Positions 46,933-60,700 of a stretch of 64,000 bases of DNA are shown here, one piece after another. The DNA lies in NCBI GenBank assembly GCA_014905635.1, contig JABVCE010000002.1, positions 2,108,001-2,172,000 of the forward strand, read 5' to 3'. Numbering within the stretch: the stretch's first letter is position 1; every line of letters begins with the position of its first letter. Made by a program: the position numbers and the translations under genes. A model generated the notes under the pieces. It saw only the letters and a list, made by a program, of their open reading frames with translations, did not search any database and had not been told where the DNA came from. The DNA is from Scenedesmus sp. PABB004. Its lineage: Eukaryota.

Positions 46933-47141
46933 TCACATGATCGCGCAGCGCTGCCCGCCGCCCGGCGCCGCGGGCTCGTCGGGCGCCGCCGCGGGCACGG
47001 CGGCGTGGTGGAACTGGCTCACATCCAGGCCGTACTGCTGTTGCATGCGCGCCGCCCAGGCCTCGTCCTCCGGGCTGCCGCCCGCGGGGCTGGGGCTGCC
47101 GCGCGCGGGGGCCGCCTGCTGGCGCCTGCGCCCCGGCGGCC

Positions 47142-47201
<60 letters not shown>

Positions 47202-48102
47202 GCGCTGAGCGGCGGCAGCAGTGCTGAGCGACGCGGGCGCCCGGCGTGGGGCGGGCGCCGCGGCGCGCGGCCGCGCCCGCCGCGCACCTGGCCTGCTCCG
47301 CCAGCAGCGGCCGGCGACGCCACGCCGCGTCGTCGTCGGCGTCCTCAGCCGCCTCCTCGGCGCGCACGTACGCGCCCTGCAGCGCGCAGCTCAGCACCAG
47401 CGTCAGCAGCTGCAGCAAGAACAGCGCGACGCCGACCCACTTGCAGACCTGGGGCCGAGGCGGCGGCGGCGGCGGGGCGGCGGCGGCGCGTGCGCTGCCG
47501 TCAGGCCCCGCGCCGCCGCTGGCTGCGTGCCCCGCCTCGCAGCGCGCTGCGCGCCACCGCACGCCGCGCGCCTGCAGGCGTGCCGCGAGGAAGCGCACGA
47601 GCTCTTCGTCGCTCGCGCCGGGCAGGCGCTCGCGCCAGCCGGCATCGATGAACATCGCCACCGCGGCGCAGGCCTGGGCCGTGAGGAGCAGGCAGGTCGC
47701 AAAGACGTGCCCGCTCGCGCAGCCGAGGCTGCGCAGGCGCGTGCCGAGCAGCGCGAGCCCCGCGACGCCCGCGCTCGCGGCGCCGAGCGCGCCGACGGCG
47801 AGGATGAACCACGGCACGTTGGACAGGCGCGCCGCGGCGTCGGCCGCGCCGCCGAGCGCCGCAGCGGGCGCGCGCGCCGCGCCGCGCAGCAGGAGGCCCG
47901 GCAGCGCCGCCGGCGGCAGCGGCGGCGCGGGCTCCGGCGGCGCGCCCGCGTGCTGGATCTGCGCCACGGTGACCGCCGCCCACGCCGCCACGACTGCGCC
48001 CACAACGAGCAGCAGCACGTTCAGCGCCTGCACCGCGCCCTCCAGGAAGCGCACCCAGGCGCTGGGCGGGTGCTCGCTGAACCAGTCGGCCACGCGGCCC
48101 AT
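46933..48102 (-). CDS. TOM2A-like tetraspanin with C-terminal CaaX (multi-exon)
   Basis: Four TM segments (LNVLLLVVG, PWFILAVG, CLLLTAQA, WVGVALFLLQLL); WAARMQQQYGLD; ends RCAIM*; TGTAA on minus strand at about 46830. Confidence 0.85.
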
Positions 48103-48709
48103 CGTGGCGGCCGGCAGCGGCAGCAGCAGCGGCGCTGCGGCGGGTGGTGGCGCGCCGCCGACTCCGGAGCGGCCCGCTGCGCGTGCCGGGTCACGGATCG
48201 CGCTCGGGGAGTCACGGGAGCCGCTGGGGCCGCGGGCCAGCGCCGTGTGCGGTGCCGGGAGGGCGGGAGGGCGATGTGTCGAAGTGTGTGTTGCCGTGGA
48301 ATCGGGGCGATGCCTGCGTGCGGATCGGGACGACCTGCTGCGACCGCGGCGTGCGTGGGACACCGAGCTGGTGCGATGGCGGTCAGGGCGTGCGGCGCAG
48401 GGCTCAGCCCCGCTCGCCGCCACACGCCGCAGCAGGAGGAGCCCTGGGCATCGCAGCGCCGGCGCCAGCGCACTTCCCGACGGTGCCGGGCCTCCCGCTG
48501 CGCGCGAAGCAGCAGCCACCGACCTGCCGCCGCCGGCCAGCGTTGACCGGCGCGCCGCTGCCCTCTCGCGCCGCGCCGCAGCCCGCCGTCGTGCTCCTCT
48601 CCTGCCCACCGCTCGTCGCCGCCGAGCCATCGCCACCGCTGCGCCGCCACCGCGCCGCGCAGCAGCCGCGCAGCAGCAGCGGCGCGCCAGCGGTCTCGCG
48701 CGCGCCACC

Positions 48710-49027
48710 ATGGCCGGCGACGTCGCGGCGGTCGAGGAGACCTTCAAGCGCATCCAGTCGCACAAGGGCGTCGTGGGGGCGCTCATCATCAACGCCGACG
48801 GCATCGCGATCCGCTCCACGTTTGACGCGGACGCGACGGTCGCGTACGCGGCGCTGGTCTCGGGCTTCACCGGCAAGGCGCGCGCCGCGGTGCAGGGGCT
48901 GGACCCCGACGACGAGCTGCGCTTCGTGCGGCTGCGCTCGCGCAAGCACGAGATCATGGTCGCGCCCGAGTTTGAGCGCGCGCACGAGTACGCGCTCGTC
49001 GTGGTGCAGGACCCCGGCGTCGAGTGA
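48710..49027 (+). CDS. Dynein light chain, Roadblock/LC7 family (single exon)
   Basis: VEETFKRIQSHKGVVG...DPDDELRFVRLRSRKHEIMVAPE...LVVVQDP. Confidence 0.95.
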   Translation: MAGDVAAVEETFKRIQSHKGVVGALIINADGIAIRSTFDADATVAYAALVSGFTGKARAAVQGLDPDDELRFVRLRSRKHEIMVAPEFERAHEYALVVVQDPGVE

Positions 49028-49157
49028 CGCGCCTGGCTGGTCGGTTGCCCTCGCAACAGCACCACAACACACGCACAGCGCGGGCCCGCCCCTCGAGCGC
49101 CCGCGCGCAGCAGCCCCCGCGGGCGCGCCCGGCGACCGCGACCGGCCCGCCCGCCCC

Positions 49158-49368
49158 TCACTCGGCCGCGCCGCCGCCGTCGCCGCGGACCTGCACGGGC
49201 GGGCGCTGCATGCAGAGCTTGACCAGCGCTGCGCCGCCGCCAGCGTCGCTCTCTGCAGCCTCGCAGCCGCCGGGGCCAGACGGCCGCCGCTCCAGGCTGC
49301 CCCTGCTCGCCAGCTCCAACGCAGCTGACGCCTGCAGCTGCCCTGGGCGGGGCACCTCGGGCGTGTCG

Positions 49369-49402
<34 letters not shown>

Positions 49403-52400
49403 GCTCCAGCCAGGCCGCCCTGACCGCCGCGGCGTCTGGCGGCAGGCGCGGCAGCCACAGCGCGGCGCCGTCCAGGGGCGCCGCGGGCGCGTGCGGCGGC
49501 GCGATGCGGCGGCCCTGCGCGGCGCGGGTGCGGGCTCGGCCAGCGCCGGGTGGGCGGCGCCCAGCGCCGCGCAGCCTTCGCGTGCAGCGGCGCACCTTGC
49601 CGCCGCCGCCCGGCGGTGCATCGGGGAAGGAGCGCGCTGCCAGCCGGCTGCTGCTGAGCGTCGCCAGCTGCACTGGGTCGGGACTGCCTTTCAAAACCCA
49701 AACCCCGTGGTCGTGCGCCGCGACCGCGGCCCGCTCGTGGCCGAGCCGCGCCGCGTGGCGCAGCAGGCTCGTCTGCAGCGCGCAGCGGCGCACCGCGACC
49801 GTCGGCAGCTCCAGCGTCAGCGCGCCGCCGTCCGGCGCGGCGGGCACAGGCGGGGCGTCGGCGGCTGCGGCGCAGCCGGCGCCAACGGCGCCGCCAGCGC
49901 AGCGGCCGGCGCTGCAGGGCGCCTCGTCCCTGCGCGCCGGCCCCGCCGCGGCGTCGCTGCCGCCGCCGCACTCGGCGGCCTCCGCCGGCGGCGGCGCCGT
50001 CATTGAGGTGAGTGAGTTGACTGGCGTCACGGTCAGCGACACGCCCGGGCTGCCTCCGCTGCTGGCGCCGCGGTCGCGGCGCCGCCAGGCTGGCAGGCCG
50101 CTCTTCGAGCGCAGCGACCGGACCAGCCCCTGCGTGAGGGAGCTGGGCAGCAGCCGCGCGCTGCTGCCAGGCTCGTGCGCCGTGGCTGCGCCGCCGCCTG
50201 GCGGCCCCCCGGCGGTGCAGCCCGCCACGCGATGCTGCGCCACGAGGCTGCTGATCCGCTCGCGCATGCCCGGCTCCGCCAGCGTATCCTGCCGGCGGTG
50301 GGCGGGGGCGCAGCCCCCGCTGTCAGCACGCCGTCAGCGCGCCCAGCGCAAGGCGCGGGGCGCTGTGCGCGGAGCGCACTGCAGCAGGGCGCGCCGCCGC
50401 CGCGCCTGGGCCATCGCAGCGTCAAAGGCACACGCCGGCGCCGCCGCCACCTGCAGCAGGTTGCGCGCCTCCACAGTCACGCGGCCGCCGCCGCTGAGGC
50501 CGGCGCCCACGCCGCCGGCGGCGCTGCCGCCGCCACCGCTGCTGGGCTCGGCGGCGCCAGCCGCGCCGCCGTGCGGCGGCAGCGACTGCGCGGCGCCGCC
50601 GCCCGGCTGCGCGGCGAGGGGCTGCGGCTGCGGCGCCTCGCTGGCAAAGCAGCAGGGGGTCGGGAGCAGGCCCTCAGCGTCGATCGCAGCGGCCGTGGCG
50701 GCAAAGCGGCTCGCCGCAAACACCTCCTGCAGCGGCGGCGCCTCCTCGCCACGCCAGATGCGGCAGGCGCGCGCCGCCAGCGCCAGCTCGCACACCACCT
50801 GGCCGCCGTGGGCGGCGACGTCGGCAAAGCGCGCCGCCGAGTTGGCAACGGAACCATGGTAGTCTGCTCGCCCCAGGGCGTCGGGCACGACCGAGCGCGG
50901 GCAGCCCTCGCACACGCCGATCTTGAGCCTGCGGCGGCGGCGGCGGCGGGGCGGCACGATGGCGCCCGGCCCCCGGGGGCTGGCAAAGCAGATGCGCATG
51001 ACGCCGCGACGCCTGCGCCGCACCTGGGGCCCCGGAAGGCGGGCGCGCCGCCACCGCCGCCCGCCGACTCGCAGAGCTCGGGATGGCGCAGCAGGTGCGC
51101 CGGCCAGTTCTGCCAGAGCAGCAGCTCGTGTGCGTAGAGCGCCCACGCCAGCGCGTCCTGCTCGGCACGCAGGCGGGGCGCGCCGCGTGTGCCGGCCGCC
51201 GGCCGGCGCAGGCCCGGGCCTGGGCCGCCAGGCGCAGCGCGAGCGCCGCCGGCGCGGGCTGACGCGGGCGCCCCGCGCCACACACGCACCAGGGGGTCGT
51301 GAAACGCGAGCATGCAGCGCAGCCCGCCCTCCTGCACCCGCGCCATGTAGCCGCCCTGCACGGCGCGCAGCGCAGTGCGCAGCGCGCGCGCCGTGGCCGC
51401 GCCCAGCGCCGCCGCCGCGCCGGCGTCGCGTGCCAGCAGCGCCGCGCCGCCCTCGACGCGCGCGAAGACGACCGTGACGGGCGGCAGCGGCGCGCGCGCG
51501 GGGCGCGGGTGGCGCAGCGGCGCGGCGGCGGCCGAGAGGTCGGCGAACAGCGCGCCTGCGTGGCGCGGCGCCGGCGGCGCCGGCGGCGCCGGCGGCGGGG
51601 CGGCGCGCACGTCGGTGCACGTGCCGCCGGGCTGGGCGACAGCCTGTGCCGCAGCGCGGGGCGGGCGCGCTGGCCAGCCCATGGGCTGGTCAGGGCCGCA
51701 CCTGGTGCGTCAAAGTATGGCAGGTCCAGAACCGCCACCTCGCCCGCGTCCCCGCCGCCGCCGGCTGCTGCGGTGTGCAGGGCGAGCTGGTTGCCGAAGG
51801 CGTGGCCGCGCGCAGCGTGGGCCGGGTGGAGCGCCTGATAGATCCGCAGCGCGCCGCCCGGCGGGTCCGCCTCGCCGCCGCCGCCGCCGGTCGACCCCGC
51901 GCCCTCGGCCGCGCTGGCGAGCTTGCCGCCCGGCGCGCCGTGCAGGCACAGCAGCGCGGCGCGCCAGCGCCGCAGCCGCAGCGCCAGCCGGGAAGGGCTG
52001 CCAGCAGTCTCGCCGCCGCCGCCGTCGCTGCCGCCGGCAGTGCTGCTCGCGCCGCCTGCGCTGGCCGGCGGCCCGGTGCTGCCCTGCTGCTCCTGCTGCT
52101 CCTGCTGCTCCTGCGGCTGCCGCCCCAGAGCATACGCGCCCATGTCCAGCAGGAGGGCCTCGGGCGCGGAGCGCACCGCGTGCGAGCTGCGCCAGCGGCG
52201 GCGGCGGTGGCGGCGGCGGCGGCAGCGGACGCGGCGCGTCGGGCGCGCTGGCCCCTGGAGCGTGCGCGCGCGGCGGCGGGCAGTGCGGCGCGCCGCGCCT
52301 GCGCCACGGCGCGAGCAGGGTGCGCCACGCCACCGCCTCCAGCGCGCCGAGGTTGACGCCGCCTGCATCGACCGCGCCCAGCTCGAGTGCCGCGTCCTTT

Positions 52401-54651
52401 ACCCCCCGCAGGGTGGCCTCGTCCAGCAGCACCTGGCCGCCCGCCGCCAGGCCGCTGACGACTGCGGCGCGCGGGGCGCACGGCGGGGCAGGCTGGGCTG
52501 GGCACTCGGCGCCGCCCGGCGTGGCGCGCAGCCTCGGGGCGCAGGCCGCTCACGCTGCGCGCGCGCCGCCACCCAGGAGCTGTCGAGCGCGCCGCCAGGC
52601 AGCCGCCCGGTGGCGAGGCCGATGCGCACGCGCAGGCCGCTGAAGGGCGCGCCGTCCCCGGCCCCCTGCCGCCGCCGCCGCCGCCGAGTGCGGCCCACAA
52701 GCCGAGCGGGCGGTGCCGCCTGCTGCCAGGGCCGCTGGCGCTGCCGACGCTGGACCAGCCGCGGCGCAGGTGCGCCAGCATGCCGCCACTGCTGCCACTG
52801 GGCTGCGCCTGCAGTGCCACGGGCCGCTCCGCGCCGGCGGCATCGAGCCCGGGCCCGCCTGCCGGGCCGGCTGGCGGCTGGTGCCGCTGGCCGCCGTGCG
52901 CCGAGTGCTCGCCCATGCTGTCGCAGCTGCCGGAGACGCTGGCCGCACTGCCGCCGGGCGCCAGCGGGCCACAGTCGGCGCCCTGCAGCGCGACCTGGAC
53001 CTGCGCGCGGCAGCGGCGGTAGCCGCAGCGCTCCGCCCGCCGCTCTCGCCCGCGGCGGCGGCGCAGCCGCGGCCTCCTGAGGACGCTGCCCAGTGGCGCG
53101 GCAGCCCGCCTCGCAGCCAGCGGCGCACCTGGAGCGCAAACACAGCGGCGTCGAGGGGCCGCTGGAACGCGACCGTGAAGGAGTCCCCCTCCTGCGCCGC
53201 CACGGCGCCAGCGTTGGCCCACGCCGCCTTGCGCACCGCGGCGTTGTGGACCGCCAGCGCGCCCGCCATGTGCTCCGGCGCGGACGCCATCAGCGCTGCG
53301 GCGGCGCCGCGCGGCGGCGGCCGGTCGGCGCGCTGCGCACGGACGCCTGCCGGCCGGCGCGGCCGGCGCAGCGCGCTGCCAGGCCGCGTGCGCCCCCAGG
53401 GAGCCGGTGCGCTCACCAGAGTAGCCCTCAATGTCTGTCACCGCCAGCGTGGCCGCCTCGCTGGGCCGCGGCGGGCCGCGCGCGCGGCGCTTGGCGAGGT
53501 CGCGCCGCCGCAGCGCGGCCGGCCTGAAGCGGAGCTGGTGCCACGCCGCGTTGCTCAGCAGCAGCACGAGCAGCACGAGCGTCAGGCCGGCCAGGGGCAG
53601 CAGCGCGCCCAGCACCGCGGCCGCCCAGCGTGGCAGCGGCGGCCGCGGCACGCACACGCGGCGCCCGCGGCCGAACGCCGCGTCGTGCAGCGGCGCCATC
53701 GCGTAGCCCTGCGCCGCGCGCGGCGTCACCCGTCGAGCGGCGGGGCCGGGCGGCGCCGCCCCAGCATGACACGCCCCGCCGCCGCCCGCACCTGGGCGCA
53801 CACGCAGCCTTGGTAGTCGAAGTAGAGAGGGTCAACCTGCCAGTCGACGCTGGTGAGCGCGTACGCGGGCTGGCTGAAGGGGCACAGCCACGCGTAGCTG
53901 CCGGGCGGCCAGGGATAAACGAGCCCCTCGCCGCGGCGCACGATGATGGGGCAGCTCAGCGCGCCCGAGAGCGCCGCGAGCCGGTGCTCGCCGGGCGCGA
54001 GCAGCGCCGCGGCGGCCGCCTCAAACGGCGGCGGCGCGCGCTGCCCGCTGAGGGCCATCCAGCAGGGCATGCCGTCGTTGAGCGACCTGCGGCGCGGCCG
54101 GCCGTACGCGTGCGCGCGCGCAGCACGCGTGCAGCACGCGGCGGCGCCGCCGCCGGCGGGCCCGGCGCACGGCGTCCGAGCGGGCGCGTGGCAGGAGCAT
54201 GCGCGCGCGCACGCACGAGTTGGCGTTGCCGCGGCCGAGCTGGCGGTTGCCGCTCGCATACCAGGTCCCCTGCTCATCGCCGTCGTCGGCGCCCGCAGCG
54301 CCGTCCCCGCCGCCGGCGCTGCCGTTGGCGGGCGCCTGCAGCAGGCGCCGCGTGGCCGCCTCGCGCGCGCGCAAGTCGCGCAGGCGCGCCATCAGCAGGC
54401 GGCGGCGCGCGGCGCGCGGCGCCAGCGCGGCGTGGCGGTGCGCCGCGAAGCCCTGGAGCGCGAACGGCCGTCCCGCGTACGCAGCGGCGTGCAGCGCGAC
54501 CTTGGCGGGGTGCGCCTCACCGCGCGCCAGGCCCACGAGCGGCTGCCGCGCCCGCTCGGGCAGCCGCCCGGGCGGTGCCGCGCGCTGCGGCGCCGTGCCG
54601 CCGCGAGCGCCGCCGCCCGCCGCCAGCAGCCTGCGCCCTCCGCGCCCGGGC

Positions 54652-54691
<40 letters not shown>

Positions 54692-56804
54692 TCCCGCCGC
54701 CGCCGCCGTCGCTGTCCGGCGGCTGCGCCGCGTCGGGCGGCAGCGCGCCAGAGCTCAAGTTGGTCCCCAGCAGGTGCAGGCTGGAGAGCTGGCCGAGCTG
54801 CCCCATCTCGTTAGGGATTGCTCCGCTGAGTCCAGCGTTGAAGCTGAGCTGAAGCTTGCTGAGGCTCACCGCCAGCCTGCCGCGCACGCGGCCGCGCACG
54901 CACAGTCCGCGCTGGGCGCGGCTCGGGTGCCGCCGCGCACGCGCGGCGCGGCCGCGCGCGCTCACCCTACGCTCCACGGCAGCGCGCCGGTCAGAGCGTT
55001 GTGTGCGAGGTTGACCGTGTCGAGGGAGGACAGGAAGAACAGCCCCAGCGGAATGGAGCCCTGCGCGCGCGGCGGCGCGCCAGCGCGGGCGCTGGCGTAA
55101 GCGGCCCGGCGCGCGCGTGCCCGACCCCCGCGCCAGTGCCAGCACCGTGAGGGCGTTGTAGCTGGCGTCGAGCAGGTGGAGATAGCTGAGCAGCGCCAGC
55201 GCGTCGGTGAGCTGCCCGCCGAGCCTGCGACGGCGGCGGCGGGCAGGTCTGCCTGCGCCAGCGTGCGTGCGTGCTTGGCGTGTGGCGAGAGGGAGCACCC
55301 TCCCTCGCCCCGCACCGGTTGCGAGACACGTCCAGCCAGGTCAGCAGCGGCGTCCCGGCGGCCAGCGCGGGCGGCAGAGGCCCGGCGAGGGCGTTGTCCG
55401 CGGCCAGAAAGATCTGCAGCGCCCGCCAGCTGGTGCTGGCTGGCAGCGGGCCGGTGAAGCCGTTCATCTGCCGATGGGGTTTAGGGCGGGGTTTGGGAGC
55501 GGCGGCTCTAAGCAGTCAGGGCCCGGCGGGCGCGGCGGCGCCCCCCCCCCCCCCCTGCAAGCTCCCGGGGGGCAGCGGGGCGCGCGGGCGCCCACCGAGA
55601 GGTCGAGATGCACGAGCGCGGCGCACGCCGTCACGCCCAGCGCGGTGCCGGTGAGCGTGTTGCGCCGGACGCTGAGCACGCGCAGCTTGCTGCCGGGCAG
55701 GCACACTGGGCTGGGCAGGCCGCCCTGCAGCTGGTTGACCTGCGCAGGTCAGCGCATGCGCAGCAGCCGGCTTTGGAGGCGAGCGCCGCCAACCAGCGCG
55801 CGCGCGTGCCGCGCAGCTGCCCCGCAGCGGCCGCCGCGGCGCTCCGCGCACCTCCAGGTTGAGCTCCTGCAGCTCAGGCAGGGCGCTGAGGCCGGGAGGG
55901 ATCGTGCCGACCAGGCCCAGCCCGTCCCGCAGGTCGTCGCCGACGCGCCCCGCCAGCGCGGCCGCCGCGACGGACGCCGGCGGCGCGGCGCCGCCGCCGC
56001 TCGCGCCGGGGCCGCCGGCCGCGGCCGCCGCGGCGGCGGCGTCCGCGGCGCTCGCGTTGCGCGGGTCGAGCGTGACAAAGGCTGCGCGGTGCCGCGCGGC
56101 GCGGCGGGGTTGCGGCCCAGGGCTCTGCGCGCGCGCGGCGAGGCAGCGGCGCAGCGCGGCGCGGGTCGTGCGGCCGCTCGCCCCGAGCGCGGCCGCGGTG
56201 TCGCACCCTGCGCCGCGAGGCTCAGCCGGCGCAGCCGCTTGAGCTGCGTGAGCTCCGGCGGCACGGTGCCGGTCAAGAAGTTGTTGTCCTGCGGCGACGT
56301 CGGCGAGGCGGCCGGCAGCGTCGGGGGGCGTGTGCTGCTGGTGCATGCGCCGGGCACCCGGACCGCTGCGTGCCGCCGCACCAGCAGCAGCGTCTCGAGC
56401 GACGCCATGCGCGCGAGCTCGGGCGGAATGGTTCCGGTGAGCCAGTTGCCTGCCGCGCGCGCGCACGAGGCTGGGCGGGCTGCGGCGCGCGGCACGCGCG
56501 GCGACGCACGCCGCGCCGCGCCGCGTCGCACCCGTGAGTCGCAGCTCCCGCAGGCGGGTCATGCCCCCCCACGCGGGCGTGAGGCTGCCGCTGAGGCGGC
56601 CCTGCACCAGGGCGAGCGCGCGCAGGCCGCACGCCTCGAGGTGCAACAGCGCCCCGAGCAGAGGCGGGTCGTTGAGGCTGCCGTTGATGCGGTTGACGCG
56701 CAGGCTGATGCCCGACACCGCGCCCGCGGGGGAGCAGGTCACGCCAGCAAACGCGGCGCAGAAGCGCGGCGGCCCCGCCGGCGCGGGCGCGCCGCCGCCG
56801 ACGC

Positions 56805-56878
<74 letters not shown>

Positions 56879-57312
56879 AGGTACGCGGCGCAGGAGCCGG
56901 CCGCCGCCGCGTCCTCCCAGCCGACGCGGCTGCGCAGCGTCCAGCCGGGCCCTGCGATGGACGCGGCGGTCGGTCGGGCGCACGGCGCGGCGGCGGCGGC
57001 GGGGCCAAGGCAGCGCGCACGAGCCGCTGGGCGCGGACGCCGAGCCGCTGCGGCGCGGCGCTGCGCTGCGCCGCCCGCCGTCGCACCCCCGTCTCCGAGC
57101 CGTGCGGCGCCCTGCGTGCGGTTGAAGATCCTCATGAGCGCGTCACAGGTCGCCAGCGCGCCGCAGTCGGAGCCGGCGGCGGGCGCCGATGCCGCTGCCG
57201 AAGCCGGCGCCGCTGCAGCCGCGGGCGCCGCGGCGGCGGCGCCGGTCGCGTTGGCGGGCTGGGCATCCGCGAAACGCAGTGCCAAGATCAGCACGAGCGC
57301 CCACGGCCGCAT
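49158..57312 (-). CDS. LRR receptor-like transmembrane class III nucleotidyl (adenylate/guanylate) cyclase with two cyclase domains (multi-exon; 3' end approximate)
   Basis: Signal MRPWALVLILALRFADA; plant-type LRRs (NWLTGTIPPEL, NNFLTGTVPPEL, NALAGPLP, NALTGALP); TM VLGALLPLAGLTLVLLVLLL; TLAVTDIEGYS, QEGDSFTVAF, LRVRIGLATG, GGQVLL; second domain RLKIGVCEG, ADYHGSVANSAAR, GGQVV. Confidence 0.85.
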
Positions 57313-57729
57313 GGCGCCGCTGCGGCAAGCGCTGCCGCGGGCGGCCGCGGCCGCGGCGGCGGGCACGCCGTGGCTGCGGCGCATGCGCTGCGCCGCGTCT
57401 GAGGCGTCTCTGGCGGCAGCGGAGGCGGGCAGGCGGGCCACCGAGGCTCTGTACGCTGCGAGGAAGGGTTTTGGCACCCCGCCCGCGCGGCGCGGTGCGC
57501 TTCGGTCACGCTCGCAATAAAAGCCCTTACAATGCGGCAACAGAGCTGATGGCTGGTGTGTAAGATAAAACAACAAAACAACAAAATCAGCAAAAAAATC
57601 AGCAGCGAATCGCGCGACTCCTCCGCGCGCCAGCGCCGGGGCGCCGGGGCCCGTCCCGCCTCTGCGGCGGGCGGGCGCGGCCGCGCGCCCCCTCTCCTGC
57701 CTCCCCGACTCGCCGCCGCGTCGCCGTCA

Positions 57730-60700
57730 TCAGGTCAGCTGCACCGCGACGACTTGCGTGAGCCCGTCGGTCATGGACAGCCGCAGCTGCACGCACTGCC
57801 CCGGCGCCGCGCCGGCCTTGGCCACGGCAAAGGTGAGCACGCTGACGCCCGTCTTCCGCGCGCACGTCTCGCCCGGCGCCGCCGCGGTGCTGCGCAGCGC
57901 GACCGCGCTGGCGCTCCCCGGCGGGCAGGGCACGCGCGCGCCGAGGCGCGCGGCGCGCACGACGCGCGCCGTCGGGCACCGCGGCCCGCCGGCGGCGCCC
58001 GAGACGGTGAACGGAAGCGCCGCGTTGCGCCCGAGCGCCGCCCGCACCACGGCGGTGCCGTTGGCCCAGGGCCAGGTCACGCGCCAGGCGCAGCGCGTGA
58101 GGCGCGCGCCGGCGCGCACAAAGGGCTGCGCGACCAGGCCCTGCGCCGCGCCGCACGTGCACAGGTCGCCGCCGCTGCTGTCCGTCGCGCAGCGGCAGCC
58201 CGCGGCCGGCAGGCACATGCCGGGGAGCGTGCACGCGTCGCAGAGCGGCGCGGGGCCGCAGGCCCCAGAAGCCTCGCCCCACTGCCCGCTCGCGAGGCAG
58301 GGCAGCACGTAGCCGGCGCCCGTGCGGCCGGGCGCGCAGCCCACTGCGCAGCTGCCGCCGGCGGGCGCGCCGTCCGCGCAGGCGCCGGGCGCCGCGCCAT
58401 CAGGCAGGACCGCCGGCGCGCCGCACGCCGACGGCGGCGCGCAGGCGAGGCCGCCGGCGGGCGAGGCGCGGCAGAACAGGGCGTCTCCGCACGAGGCAAA
58501 CTCGGGCGCGTAGGTGTAGCGGCACGTGGCGCCGTTGACCGGCAGGCACAGGTGCGGCGCGGCGCACGCCGCGACCGAGACGCCTGCGGCGGAGGGCGGG
58601 CGGCGGCGGCGGCGCGGCAGTGAGGGCATGAGTGCACGGGGGTCGGCCAGCGGGTCTGGCACGCGTGCGCGGGGCGGAGCTGCCGCGTGGGGCGGGCTGC
58701 CGCCGCCGCGCGGGCCGCCGCGACGCGCACACACGCACCCGACTGCACGTCCACGCACGCCGGCACCACCTGGCGCCGGCACGCCGGCAGCGGCGCCGTC
58801 GCGAGGCAGTCCCACGCGTCCCGCACGTTGAGCACGCCCGCGGGCAGCGATGCGCCGGGCGGGGGCGCGATCGTGTCGTCGGCGGTGTCGATCATGCAGC
58901 GCAGCACGTCGGCCGCGGAGGCGTCGGGGAAGGCGTTGCGCAGCAGCATCGCGGCGCCCGACACGAACGGGGCGGCCAAGCTCGTCCCTGCGGCGCGGCA
59001 CAGCCGGGGCGGCGCGGAGGGGAGGAGGGGTCGGGCGCGGCGCCGCTGGGGGCGCGCCGCGCGCAGCACGCAGCACGCGCGCCGCGCGCCGCACCGGCGG
59101 TGGTGTACGCGGCCCAGCGGCCGCCGAGCCAGGAGGCGACCCTGTAGTTGGTCCAGATGTCCACCCCGGGCGCCGCGAGGCGCACGACGTCGCCCCAGTT
59201 GCTGAACGTGGCCAGCGCGTCGGTGCGGTCGATCGCGGCCACGGCGACGAGGCAGCGCGGGAACTCGGCGGCGAGCGCGGCGGGCAGGACGAGGACGCCG
59301 GGCAGCACGCTGCCGTCGGGCTGCGTGCGGCGGACGGGGCGCCGCGGCGGGCGGTGAGCGCCGGCCGCGGCCGCCACGCCTGCAGCCCCGCCACGCCCGC
59401 CAAGGCGCGGCTGCGGCCTCCCTCCCGCGCCGCCGCACCTGCAGCCCCGCGTCGCTGACGTTCACGCCCACAAAGGTCGGCGACGCGCCGGTGCAGCCGC
59501 TGCCGAGGCAGCGCCCGTTACCGGCCGCCGCGACGGCGAGGCCGTCGGCGGCGCAGAGGACCTTCAGGGCATCCCGGTAGAGCTGGGCGATGGTCGGGTC
59601 GCTGGTCACTGAGGTGAGGGAGAGGTTTATGACGTGGTGGTGCCCGCGCTCGACCGAGGCGAGCATGCAGCGCGCGATGTCCGACTCCCAGCCGCTCGCG
59701 TCGGCGCCAAACGCGTTGCACGACGCGACGCCGCCCAACGTCGGCCCGGCCACGCCCGCGACGCTCTGGCCGTCGGGCTGGCCTTCCCAGGGGCCCCAGC
59801 CGCCCGCGGCGACGCCAAAGACGCCCGTGCCGTGCGGGTGCCCCGCCTCGCCGCCGGCGGGCTGGTCGGCCTCGTCGCGCGCGTAGGTCACGCCCGCGGC
59901 GGCGTCGAGCTGAGGGATGATGTTGAAGTGCTTCGAGTCGACGCCCGTGTCTGCGCGCGGGCGGCGGGCCGCGCCGGCGGTGAGCGAGCGAATGGCGGCA
60001 GCGCGCGGCGCGGCGGCGGGCGCCGCGCAGCGGCGCGCGGGCGAGGGAGCGGCGTGTGTGTGCGCGCGCGCGCTCACCGATGATCATCGCGCGCCGGCTG
60101 AAGTTGAGCGGCATGAGCGACCCCATGTCCGCCCACAGCTCTGCGCAGCAGCCGGGGGGCGCAGCGGGGGCGCGCGGTGGGCGGGCGCGGCAGCGCCCGC
60201 GGCGCCTGCAAAACAGAGGGCCGGCGGCCGCGCCTCGCCGCACCTGGCGCCCGGATGCGGTCCAGGCCCCACTGCTTAGGACAGGTGCCGGTCGAGCACT
60301 CGTCCGGCAGGTTGGGCGGGACGTCGCTCGCAGGCGACGCCGCCCGCGCCGCGCCGGCCCCGGCCCCGGCCGCAAACGCCCGCGGCTGCGCCGCGGGCGG
60401 CGGCGCCGCGTCCACGCCGTACAGCTCCACGCGCTGGTCGACGCCCGCGATCGCAAACAGCGGCGCCTCGGCCGGGCCGGCTGCCGACGCCGACGCGCCG
60501 CCGCCCGGCTCGGCGGTCAGCGCGGCCGCCGCGGCGCGCAGGTCGAGTGGCGGCGCGCCGGCGGCCGCCGCGGCGCCGCCGGCCGGCGCGCGCAGGACCT
60601 GCCAGCAGGGCACGCCCAGCGGCGCATCATAGACCAGGCCCACCGCCGCAGCCCGCGCCCGCACCCGCGCGAGCGTGGCCGCGTCCACGCCGGCGGCGCG

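Follow-up and report, generated by a model that had tools for sequence, protein, structure and literature searches.

A predicted leucine-rich-repeat receptor carrying two class III cyclase domains with complementary catalytic residues in Scenedesmus sp. PABB004

In mammalian adenylyl cyclases the catalytic residues are divided between two domains: C1 has the metal-binding Asp residues, and the residue that contacts the base, the Asn/Arg pair and the terminal Lys lie in C2. Trypanosomatid receptor cyclases have one complete catalytic domain, which must homodimerise, and an ectodomain that is not made of leucine-rich repeats (LRRs). In animal receptor guanylyl cyclases each chain has a periplasmic-binding-protein-like ectodomain, a kinase-homology domain and a single cyclase domain, and the chains form symmetric homodimers. 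In the green lineage, cyclic-nucleotide signalling by LRR receptors has been argued for years on the basis of short 'moonlighting' motifs in receptor kinases. BRI1 is among the plant receptor kinases claimed to hold a 'moonlighting' guanylyl cyclase centre (PMC1867859, available portion). The fungal Cyr1-type cyclases are described, in the available portion of PMC2939053, as cytosolic proteins with no transmembrane (TM) helix, with Ras-association and PP2C domains and a single cyclase domain. In the same portion of that survey of 101 eukaryotic genomes, Soanes and Talbot (2010) report LRRs together with the cyclase family PF00211 in fungi only. Here we describe a predicted receptor-cyclase gene in a 64,000-nt window of Scenedesmus sp. 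PABB004 (contig JABVCE010000002.1, positions 2,108,001 to 2,172,000), whose product joins a plant-type LRR ectodomain, one TM helix and two cyclase domains in one chain.

The gene lies on the minus strand of the window, from an ATG at 57312 to a stop codon at 49158-49160, and has 21 exons with 1916 codons and the stop. All features of the gene given below are on this strand. An initial annotation had set these same limits and had listed a signal peptide, many plant-type LRRs, one TM helix and two class III cyclase domains; the limits were borne out and every element was found where it had been placed. The first cyclase domain, D1, is C1-like and covers residues 886-1215 (51799..53459, from the family alignment). 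The core of the second, D2, is C2-like and covers residues 1268-1440 (50751..51496; tblastn E from 1e-14 to 1.9e-23). Each domain has kept the half of the catalytic site that the other has lost.

D1 keeps both metal-binding Asp residues, D894 (TDIEG, 53435-53433) and D937 (EGDSF, 53185-53183), and the RVRIG Arg, R1029. In the family alignment its Asn position is A1048 and its Arg position is Q1052. The region expected as VN.AAR reads V-A-A-R-A-Q after a 7-residue deletion. D2 shows the reverse pattern, with R1280 at the first Asp position (FARVEGG) and G1325 at the second (QEGGLRC). It keeps D1403, N1410 and R1414 in RADYHGSVANSAAR, together with K1740 in the last strand. D1403 stands seven residues before N1410, where adenylyl cyclases contact the adenine. 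The two metal Asp residues and the Asn/Arg pair are not found together in either domain, and the set is complete only across D1 and D2. The initial annotation had read correctly what each domain keeps and lacks (TDIEG and EGDSF kept and Asn/Arg lost in D1; the Asp residues lost and DYHG...NSAAR kept in D2). The string SWVAARAQL, which it had quoted for the lost pair of D1, is real and the pair is lost, but the string spans a splice junction (Q|L) and the Arg of its 'AAR' is out of register in the family alignment and does not occupy the catalytic Arg position.

The same positions were counted in 72 proteins that had a D1 hit followed by a D2 hit, each of at least 100 bits, with hidden Markov models (HMMs) of the two cores. 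Counting every domain hit without this filter mixes in ordinary cyclases and was uninformative. In D1 the first Asp is conserved in 63/72 proteins (6 unaligned), the second Asp in 67/72 and the RxG Arg in 71/72. The Asn position of D1 holds Asn in 0/72, and its Arg position holds Arg in 1/72 and Lys in 47/72. In D2 the first Asp position holds Asp in 0/72, and the second holds Asp in 22/72 and Glu in 12/72. The base-contacting Asp, the Asn and the Arg of D2 are kept in 67/72, 67/72 and 70/72, respectively. The initial annotation had named the alignments as a point on which its reading could fail, and they show reciprocal loss of the half-sites in the window and in these 72 tandem homologs. Such reciprocal loss is the pattern that would be predicted for a single composite site of the C1/C2 type.

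We consider it probable that this one gene encodes a receptor with a composite D1·D2 cyclase site and LRR-controlled synthesis of a cyclic nucleotide. As neither domain completes a site with its own copy and the two together hold the full set, a D1·D2 pair is the simplest reading. The gene would give a type-I membrane receptor with its plant-type LRR ectodomain facing outward. To the site D1 would bring its two metal Asp residues and the RxRxG-strand Arg; the transition-state Asn and Arg, the terminal Lys and the base-contacting Asp would come from D2. We infer that the domains pair head-to-tail, within one chain or across the two chains of a receptor dimer; judged by the residues, pairing across two chains would be equally compatible. 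Such a pair would have one working catalytic site, the other pocket being degenerate, as in mammalian C1·C2. With the module about 35 residues behind the membrane, changes in the ectodomain or in oligomerisation could reach the cyclase directly. A ligand on the LRRs would then alter the synthesis of cyclic AMP (cAMP) or cyclic GMP (cGMP), with no kinase domain in between. For the product we lean weakly towards cAMP: the nearest relatives of solved structure are adenylyl cyclases, and D2 retains the base-contacting Asp typical of such enzymes.

By homology D1 and D2 both belong to the class III cyclase-homology domains (PF00211). The D1 exons of the window align to the PF00211-positive D1 regions of homologs. 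In a Pfam scan of 12 homologs, LRR families were found in 12/12 and PF00211 over D1 in 8/12 at E<=0.01, 7 of them above the 21.9-bit gathering cut-off. The best tblastn matches to the D2 exon came from homologs P0014 (E 1.9e-23) and P0009 (E 6e-16). Profiles of D1 and D2 were cut from a MAFFT alignment of the window model and 25 homologs, and hhalign matched one to the other with a probability of 99.7 and E 5.4e-25 over 224 columns. The D2 profile matched the trypanosome receptor cyclases 1fx2 (E 0.0011) and 1fx4 (E 0.0034) over 160 positions. D1 and D2 are, on these profiles, ancient paralogs. In an AlphaFold2 (AF2) model of homolog P0036 (1193 aa; stalk, TM helix, D1 and D2) the two cores have the same strand-helix order, with a predicted local distance difference test score (pLDDT) >90 over both and a predicted template modelling score (pTM) of 0.62. 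The alignment for this model had 68 rows, chosen for a length <=1480 aa and D1 or D2 hallmarks. VIA-align superposed the model on 1fx4 with Z 21.1 and a root-mean-square deviation (rmsd) of 3.8 over 213 aligned residues, and on 1fx2 with Z 20.6. Many bacterial, fungal and animal cyclases matched it at Z 15-19, and the cyclase domain of GC-A (9bcv_A) at Z 16.4; all of these Foldseek/VIA-align rows cover D1, about residues 210-690 of the P0036 model.

D1 and D2 are joined by a linker with a conserved FDAPG motif (residues 1216-1267; 51497..51798), which is kept in homologs. D2 is interrupted by a long low-complexity insert (residues 1441-1724; 49737..50750), with one intron (50450-50289) in the model. 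Homologs carry inserts at the same place in D2, and the insert is disordered in the AF2 model of P0036. The last D2 strands (49614..49736) follow the insert and hold the conserved K1740 (WVLKG) and the ...R.FP motif. These strands were located by tblastn, in which homolog P0014 aligned to 49733-49572 at E 4.2e-7 and homolog P0018 to 49817-49599 at E 2.7e-4. The C-terminal tail, with a poly-Gln tract, runs as an open frame to the stop codon (49158..49613); a (CAG)n tract at about 49380-49410 encodes the poly-Gln.

The ectodomain is that of a plant LRR receptor-like kinase: signal peptide (by eye), LRRNT cap, plant-type LRRs and a single TM helix. The translation begins with a signal-peptide-like segment, judged by eye (residues 1-18, MRPWALVLILALRFADAQ; 57259..57312). 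An LRRNT-like Cys cap with a poly-Gly tract follows at residues 47-150 (56728..57174). Exon 2 alone matched the cap and first LRRs of the ectodomain of the plant receptor kinase MIK2 in the PDB (E 1.4e-7), and in tblastn homologs P0009 and P0007 aligned to this cap region at 56772-56536 (E 2.5e-14). About 13-14 plant-type LRRs of 24 residues each occupy residues 151-545 in exons 2-10 (54738..56727), as seen in the translation and by tblastn, and a strict plant-LRR regular expression matched 6 of them. The best PDB matches to the ectodomain of the close homolog P0007 were FLS2 (E 1.7e-86), GSO1, PEPR1 and BRI1. Two (GGC)n tracts were observed in coding exons of the ectodomain, at 56810-56880 and 54650-54720, encoding poly-Gly of about 22 and about 12 residues.

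Between the LRRs and the membrane lies a low-complexity stretch with a Cys-rich juxtamembrane stalk (residues 546-829; 53628..54737), whose motif W..DP.YF.Y.GC.C is common to homologs (tblastn, family consensus). The TM helix (residues 830-853; 53556..53627) was found as a hydrophobic 19-residue window above the script threshold before D1, and about 35 residues separate it from D1. The script covered only the 130 residues before D1; reading of the translation showed no hydrophobic stretch between D1 and D2, so that the count is one TM helix, placed before D1.

The architecture is not confined to this locus. A search with the D2 exon returned six fragments, and a search with the best fragment returned 26 proteins of 1286-2429 aa. 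By precomputed annotation 23/26 had LRR Pfam families and 13/26 had both LRRs and PF00211. A third search gave 43 matches at E<=1e-10, 38 with LRR families. In a representative library, the proteins matched by homolog P0036 numbered 4832 at E<=0.001; 897 of them reached E<=1e-10 and 83 reached E<=1e-30. The survey across algae proposed in the initial annotation found homologs with LRRs and PF00211 in three chlorophyte classes, Chlorophyceae, Trebouxiophyceae and Pedinophyceae. The sources were Monoraphidium, Raphidocelis, Tetradesmus, Scenedesmus, Chlamydomonas eustigma, Chlamydomonas sp. UWO 241, Volvox africanus, Gonium pectorale, Coccomyxa, Symbiochloris and Pedinophyceae sp. Ten more distant members came from [Myrmecia] bisecta (3) and Pedinophyceae sp. 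(7). No C. reinhardtii or V. carteri protein was among the matches listed, and absence is not implied by this, as the searches score only about 8000 word-sharing candidates. The weakest family matches were fungal Cyr1-type cyclases, P0053 (E 2.4e-12) and P0054 (E 2.6e-12).

Relatives share the order LRR-TM-D1-D2, and D1 and D2 always occur together and in the same order in full-length members. Among 73 family rows including the window, 50 had at least two plant-LRR motifs before D1 and 65 had a TM-like segment just before D1. In a maximum-likelihood tree of 24 D1, 24 D2 and 3 outgroup domains, all D1 fell on one side of a branch with support 99/99, and all D2 were likewise grouped (100/99). 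All three classes, Chlorophyceae, Trebouxiophyceae and Pedinophyceae, are represented in the D1 group and in the D2 group, which dates the duplication and its division of labour to before these classes. Both window domains fell within chlorophycean groups, and window D1 was nearest to Raphidocelis P0018 (98/84).

Several paralogs occur in many species, with at least 9 records in Chlamydomonas eustigma and at least 8 in Pedinophyceae sp. One C. eustigma homolog, P0011, also lacks the metal Asp residues in D1 (HVAVEG, DAGSF). It is likely a fully inactive member, and it stands beside intact paralogs on the same contig. P0046, a Scenedesmus sp. PABB004 record, has a PAN_4 (apple) ectodomain instead of LRRs before the same tandem cyclase module, which suggests that different ectodomains have been exchanged over an unchanged output module. 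The records are named 'hypothetical' or 'Guanylate cyclase domain-containing protein', and one is named 'inactive leucine-rich repeat receptor kinase-like'.

Several results weigh against an active composite site in a single receptor chain. The alternative with the best standing is that the tandem domains are a pseudo-enzyme, dead here or family-wide, and would work downstream of an LRR receptor-like protein as a scaffold or nucleotide-binding sensor. At the purine-specifying Lys/Glu position, D2 has a non-canonical residue (V1321 in the window), and the family varies there (E 33, Q 12 and L 6 of 72), which makes substrate binding and specificity hard to predict. The window departs from the family at Q1052 (Lys in the family) and at G1325 (Asp in 22/72); these two positions are presumably non-catalytic though conserved. 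The 7-residue deletion of D1 falls in the very region that bears the Asn/Arg positions. Pfam saw a second cyclase stretch in only 1/12 of the scanned homologs, and D2 is thus too divergent for it. The Pfam check proposed in the initial annotation failed on the window itself: 18 unspliced minus-strand open reading frames (ORFs) gave 0 families at E<=0.01, and 9 single exons, scanned at E<=1, gave no LRR or cyclase family above the cut-off (LRR_1 and LRR_4 were sub-threshold at E 0.09). In this gene the domains are split over many short exons. Searched by itself with phmmer, the D2 exon had 0 matches in the PDB at E<=10, and no activity data were found for any family member. On the other side, the window keeps the full composite set (D894, D937 and R1029 in D1; D1403, N1410, R1414 and K1740 in D2), and the composite-site positions are kept in 63-71 of 72 homologs from three algal classes. 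Conservation of this kind points to selection on catalysis and not on the fold alone, and we regard a pseudo-enzyme as unlikely.

The AF2 model of P0036 also showed no canonical dimer. The initial annotation had proposed an intramolecular pseudo-heterodimer with one active site; the residue split behind this proposal is conserved, but the D1-D2 pair in the P0036 model fitted the mammalian pairs poorly, at 15-16 Å (AC5 8sl4_A, 306 aligned, rmsd 16.0; AC9 9u3r, 301 aligned, rmsd 15.1). Soluble adenylyl cyclase (sAC, 4clt) gave an rmsd of 18 against the same model in Foldseek. The modelled arrangement would therefore be either not the canonical C1·C2 one or undetectable by the aligners without coordinates or predicted aligned error. 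A complex prediction of D1 (680-1100) and D2 (1125-1480) of P0007 with ATP and 2 Mg, run without alignment or controls, scored 0.08 and 0.20 against a mark of 0.34, values that speak neither for nor against pairing. A model of homolog P0003 from a 7-row alignment had a mean pLDDT of 36.5 and was unusable.

A single-chain model with no canonical intrachain dimer would also fit a second alternative, in which the half-sites are completed between polypeptides, D1 of one member with D2 of a paralog or of another chain, so that the unit is a homo- or hetero-oligomer. Single-pass receptors commonly signal as dimers, and many species have several paralogs, as the counts for C. eustigma and Pedinophyceae sp. 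show. The constant co-occurrence and order of D1 and D2 and the retained FDAPG linker, however, fit a fixed intrachain partnership, and we consider obligate completion between chains quite improbable. It would alter the stoichiometry and not the chemistry.

The weakest alternative, that a neighbouring LRR receptor-like gene and a soluble tandem cyclase gene were read as one, draws on the G+C content of about 80%, which keeps all six frames open and makes long frames weak evidence, but it can be set aside as extremely improbable, since the stalk, the TM helix and the first D1 strand share one exon, the gaps between exons are 82-175 nt with GT..AG ends, the sole clearly A+T-rich, promoter-like patch is upstream of the ATG at about 57550-57600, and in 50/73 family rows a single protein has LRRs, TM helix and D1-D2, among them P0012, a transcriptome-assembly record by its name.

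The exon in question, 53708-53417, encodes the last part of the stalk and the TM helix together with the first D1 strand (TDIEG), and no other feature of the locus argues more strongly that receptor and cyclase form a single gene. Together with the 21-exon GT..AG frame and the same order in relatives, it supports the single-gene reading of the initial annotation, as far as a genomic prediction can. The model was built by reading the three minus-strand frames and the splice signals by hand, followed by a script check of the joined exons. Exons 1-7 are 57312-57087, 56951-56532, 56449-56382, 56288-56207, 56081-55852, 55739-55596 and 55467-55316. Exons 8-14 are 55224-55146, 55060-54966, 54876-54262, 54086-53792, 53708-53417, 53295-53129 and 53000-52821. 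Exons 15-21 are 52665-52554, 52461-52334, 52158-51702, 51555-51290, 51157-51024, 50928-50451 and 50288-49158. All introns are GT..AG and 82-175 nt long, the donors are mostly GTGCG/GTGAG and the acceptors CAG or GAG, and the spliced frame has no internal stop. For the exon 14/15 junction, a donor at 52948 was tried and rejected, as it breaks the frame, and the donor at 52820 was used instead.

The G+C content is 65-82% over the whole window and about 78-80% over the receptor-cyclase locus, and ORF lists say little here because all frames are open. Codon periodicity was observed in all 21 exons, with G+C at third codon positions (0.85-1.00) higher than at second positions (0.38-0.71), and introns had no consistent pattern. 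Full-length homologs gave minus-strand tblastn matches colinear in the order LRR, D1, D2 and tail, and no matches in the 64-kb window outside the receptor-cyclase locus. As the matches are colinear and the exons are periodic, the features read at this locus are not due to chance. A plus-strand gene was rejected: the homolog matches counted or shown at 49000-57500 were all on the minus strand, from a set in which plus-strand matches there had been filtered out beforehand. The model is nevertheless a prediction from genomic sequence alone, which counts among the points against the reading, as do four uncertain stretches, all of them clear of the catalytic motifs. These are an in-frame intron in the cap (57086-56952), exon 10 (54876-54262), which is of low complexity and may hide introns, the donor of exon 14, and the exon 20/21 junction with the C-terminal tail.

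The 3' bound of the gene is a convergent Roadblock/LC7 gene on the plus strand (48710-49024; PF03259, Pfam E 3.9e-23), apparently of a single exon and ending at 49027. About 130 nt separate the stop of this dynein light chain gene from that of the receptor-cyclase gene. On the 5' side the gene is bounded by the A+T-rich patch and by an upstream minus-strand ORF, whose stop is at about 57730. In the minus-strand reading the patch shows T runs (TTTTTTTGCTGATTTTGTTGTTTTGTTGTTTTATC) roughly 250 nt upstream of the ATG, and it is the sole such patch seen near the locus, in surroundings of about 80% G+C. It may be a promoter or 5'-untranslated-region element. The upstream ORF (57730-59517, minus strand) encodes a Cys-rich, apparently extracellular product and ends about 420 nt before the receptor-cyclase ATG. 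Downstream, an ORF at 46936-48420 (minus strand) has several hydrophobic stretches and poly-Pro and poly-Ala tracts, and Pfam found no family in it at E<=1.

The initial annotation had left novelty open. The architecture proved to be common in chlorophyte protein databases, and no paper describing it was found. No account of a chlorophyte LRR-cyclase turned up in the literature search, which did not extend to supplementary tables; such proteins could be listed there, for example in the tables of PMC2939053 and PMC12757656. The available portions of PMC5485032, PMC12223298 and PMC12757656 describe no chlorophyte LRR-cyclase, and the word 'cyclase' is absent from the available portion of a 2026 survey of chlorophyte receptor kinases. 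The chlorophyte family is, by its domain annotation, a case of LRRs with PF00211 outside fungi, contrary to the survey of PMC2939053. The family is large and old, yet its named members are only 'hypothetical' or 'guanylate cyclase domain-containing'.

We put forward only tentatively that these proteins form an undescribed, chlorophyte-wide class of surface receptors, in which an LRR ectodomain is wired to a class III cyclase with a C1/C2-like pair independent of the animal one and a ligand sets cAMP or cGMP without a kinase. If so, they would be the green-lineage counterpart of animal receptor guanylyl cyclases, and the C1/C2 division of labour would have arisen a second time, independently, in this family. 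Chlamydomonas gametes have an adhesion-activated flagellar adenylyl cyclase, according to the available portions of PMC2119992 and PMC2119601. Members of the family would be candidates for surface-triggered cyclases of green algae such as this one. The interest for algal and plant signalling is moderate to high, and the residue split makes the composite site testable by mutants.

Tandem pseudo-heterodimeric cyclases are already known, as are single-pass receptor cyclases (trypanosomes, animals) and LRR-bearing fungal cyclases. Their combination here, a plant-type LRR ectodomain with one TM helix and a C1/C2-like pair of the trypanosome/fungal subgroup, is undescribed in the literature searched, and the proteins are public but unnamed. 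Compared with plant LRR receptor kinases (FLS2, MIK2, GSO1, PEPR1, BRI1, PSKR1), the predicted receptor is alike in its signal-peptide-like start, its LRRNT cap, its LRRs of 24 residues and its one TM helix. It differs from them inside the cell, where the window protein has D1, linker, D2 and tail, and no kinase family was found in the 12 scanned homologs. It differs also from the plant 'moonlighting' centres, as an LRR receptor here carries a canonical class III cyclase pair, of predicted activity, and not a short motif inside a kinase domain. Fungal Cyr1-type proteins likewise have LRRs and a class III cyclase in one protein, together with a PP2C domain, and Cyr1 served as tree outgroup. In contrast to them, the receptor has a TM helix between LRRs and cyclases and two cyclase domains, and no PP2C family was found in the 12 scanned homologs.

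With the mammalian membrane adenylyl cyclases (C1/C2) and sAC the receptor shares two paralogous domains in one chain and the same division of residues, and one competent and one degenerate site are expected in both cases. Unlike the mammalian membrane enzymes, which have 2 x 6 TM helices, it has one TM helix and extracellular LRRs. Its domains belong to a 'TDIEG / DY.G..VN.AAR' subgroup nearest to trypanosome and fungal cyclases, which argues that the duplication was independent of the animal one, and they carry long low-complexity inserts. The modelled geometry of P0036 did not superpose on AC5, AC9 or sAC. The receptor is like animal receptor guanylyl cyclases (GC-A) in being a single-pass receptor with a class III cyclase output. 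The trypanosomatid receptor-type adenylyl cyclases (GRESAG 4.1/4.3; 1fx2, 1fx4) share its plan of an ectodomain, a single TM helix and then the cyclase, and these are the nearest solved catalytic domains both by sequence (E 0.0011) and by fold (Z 21.1 and 20.6). Where the trypanosomatid enzymes have a single complete domain, the Scenedesmus receptor has two complementary half-domains behind an LRR ectodomain.

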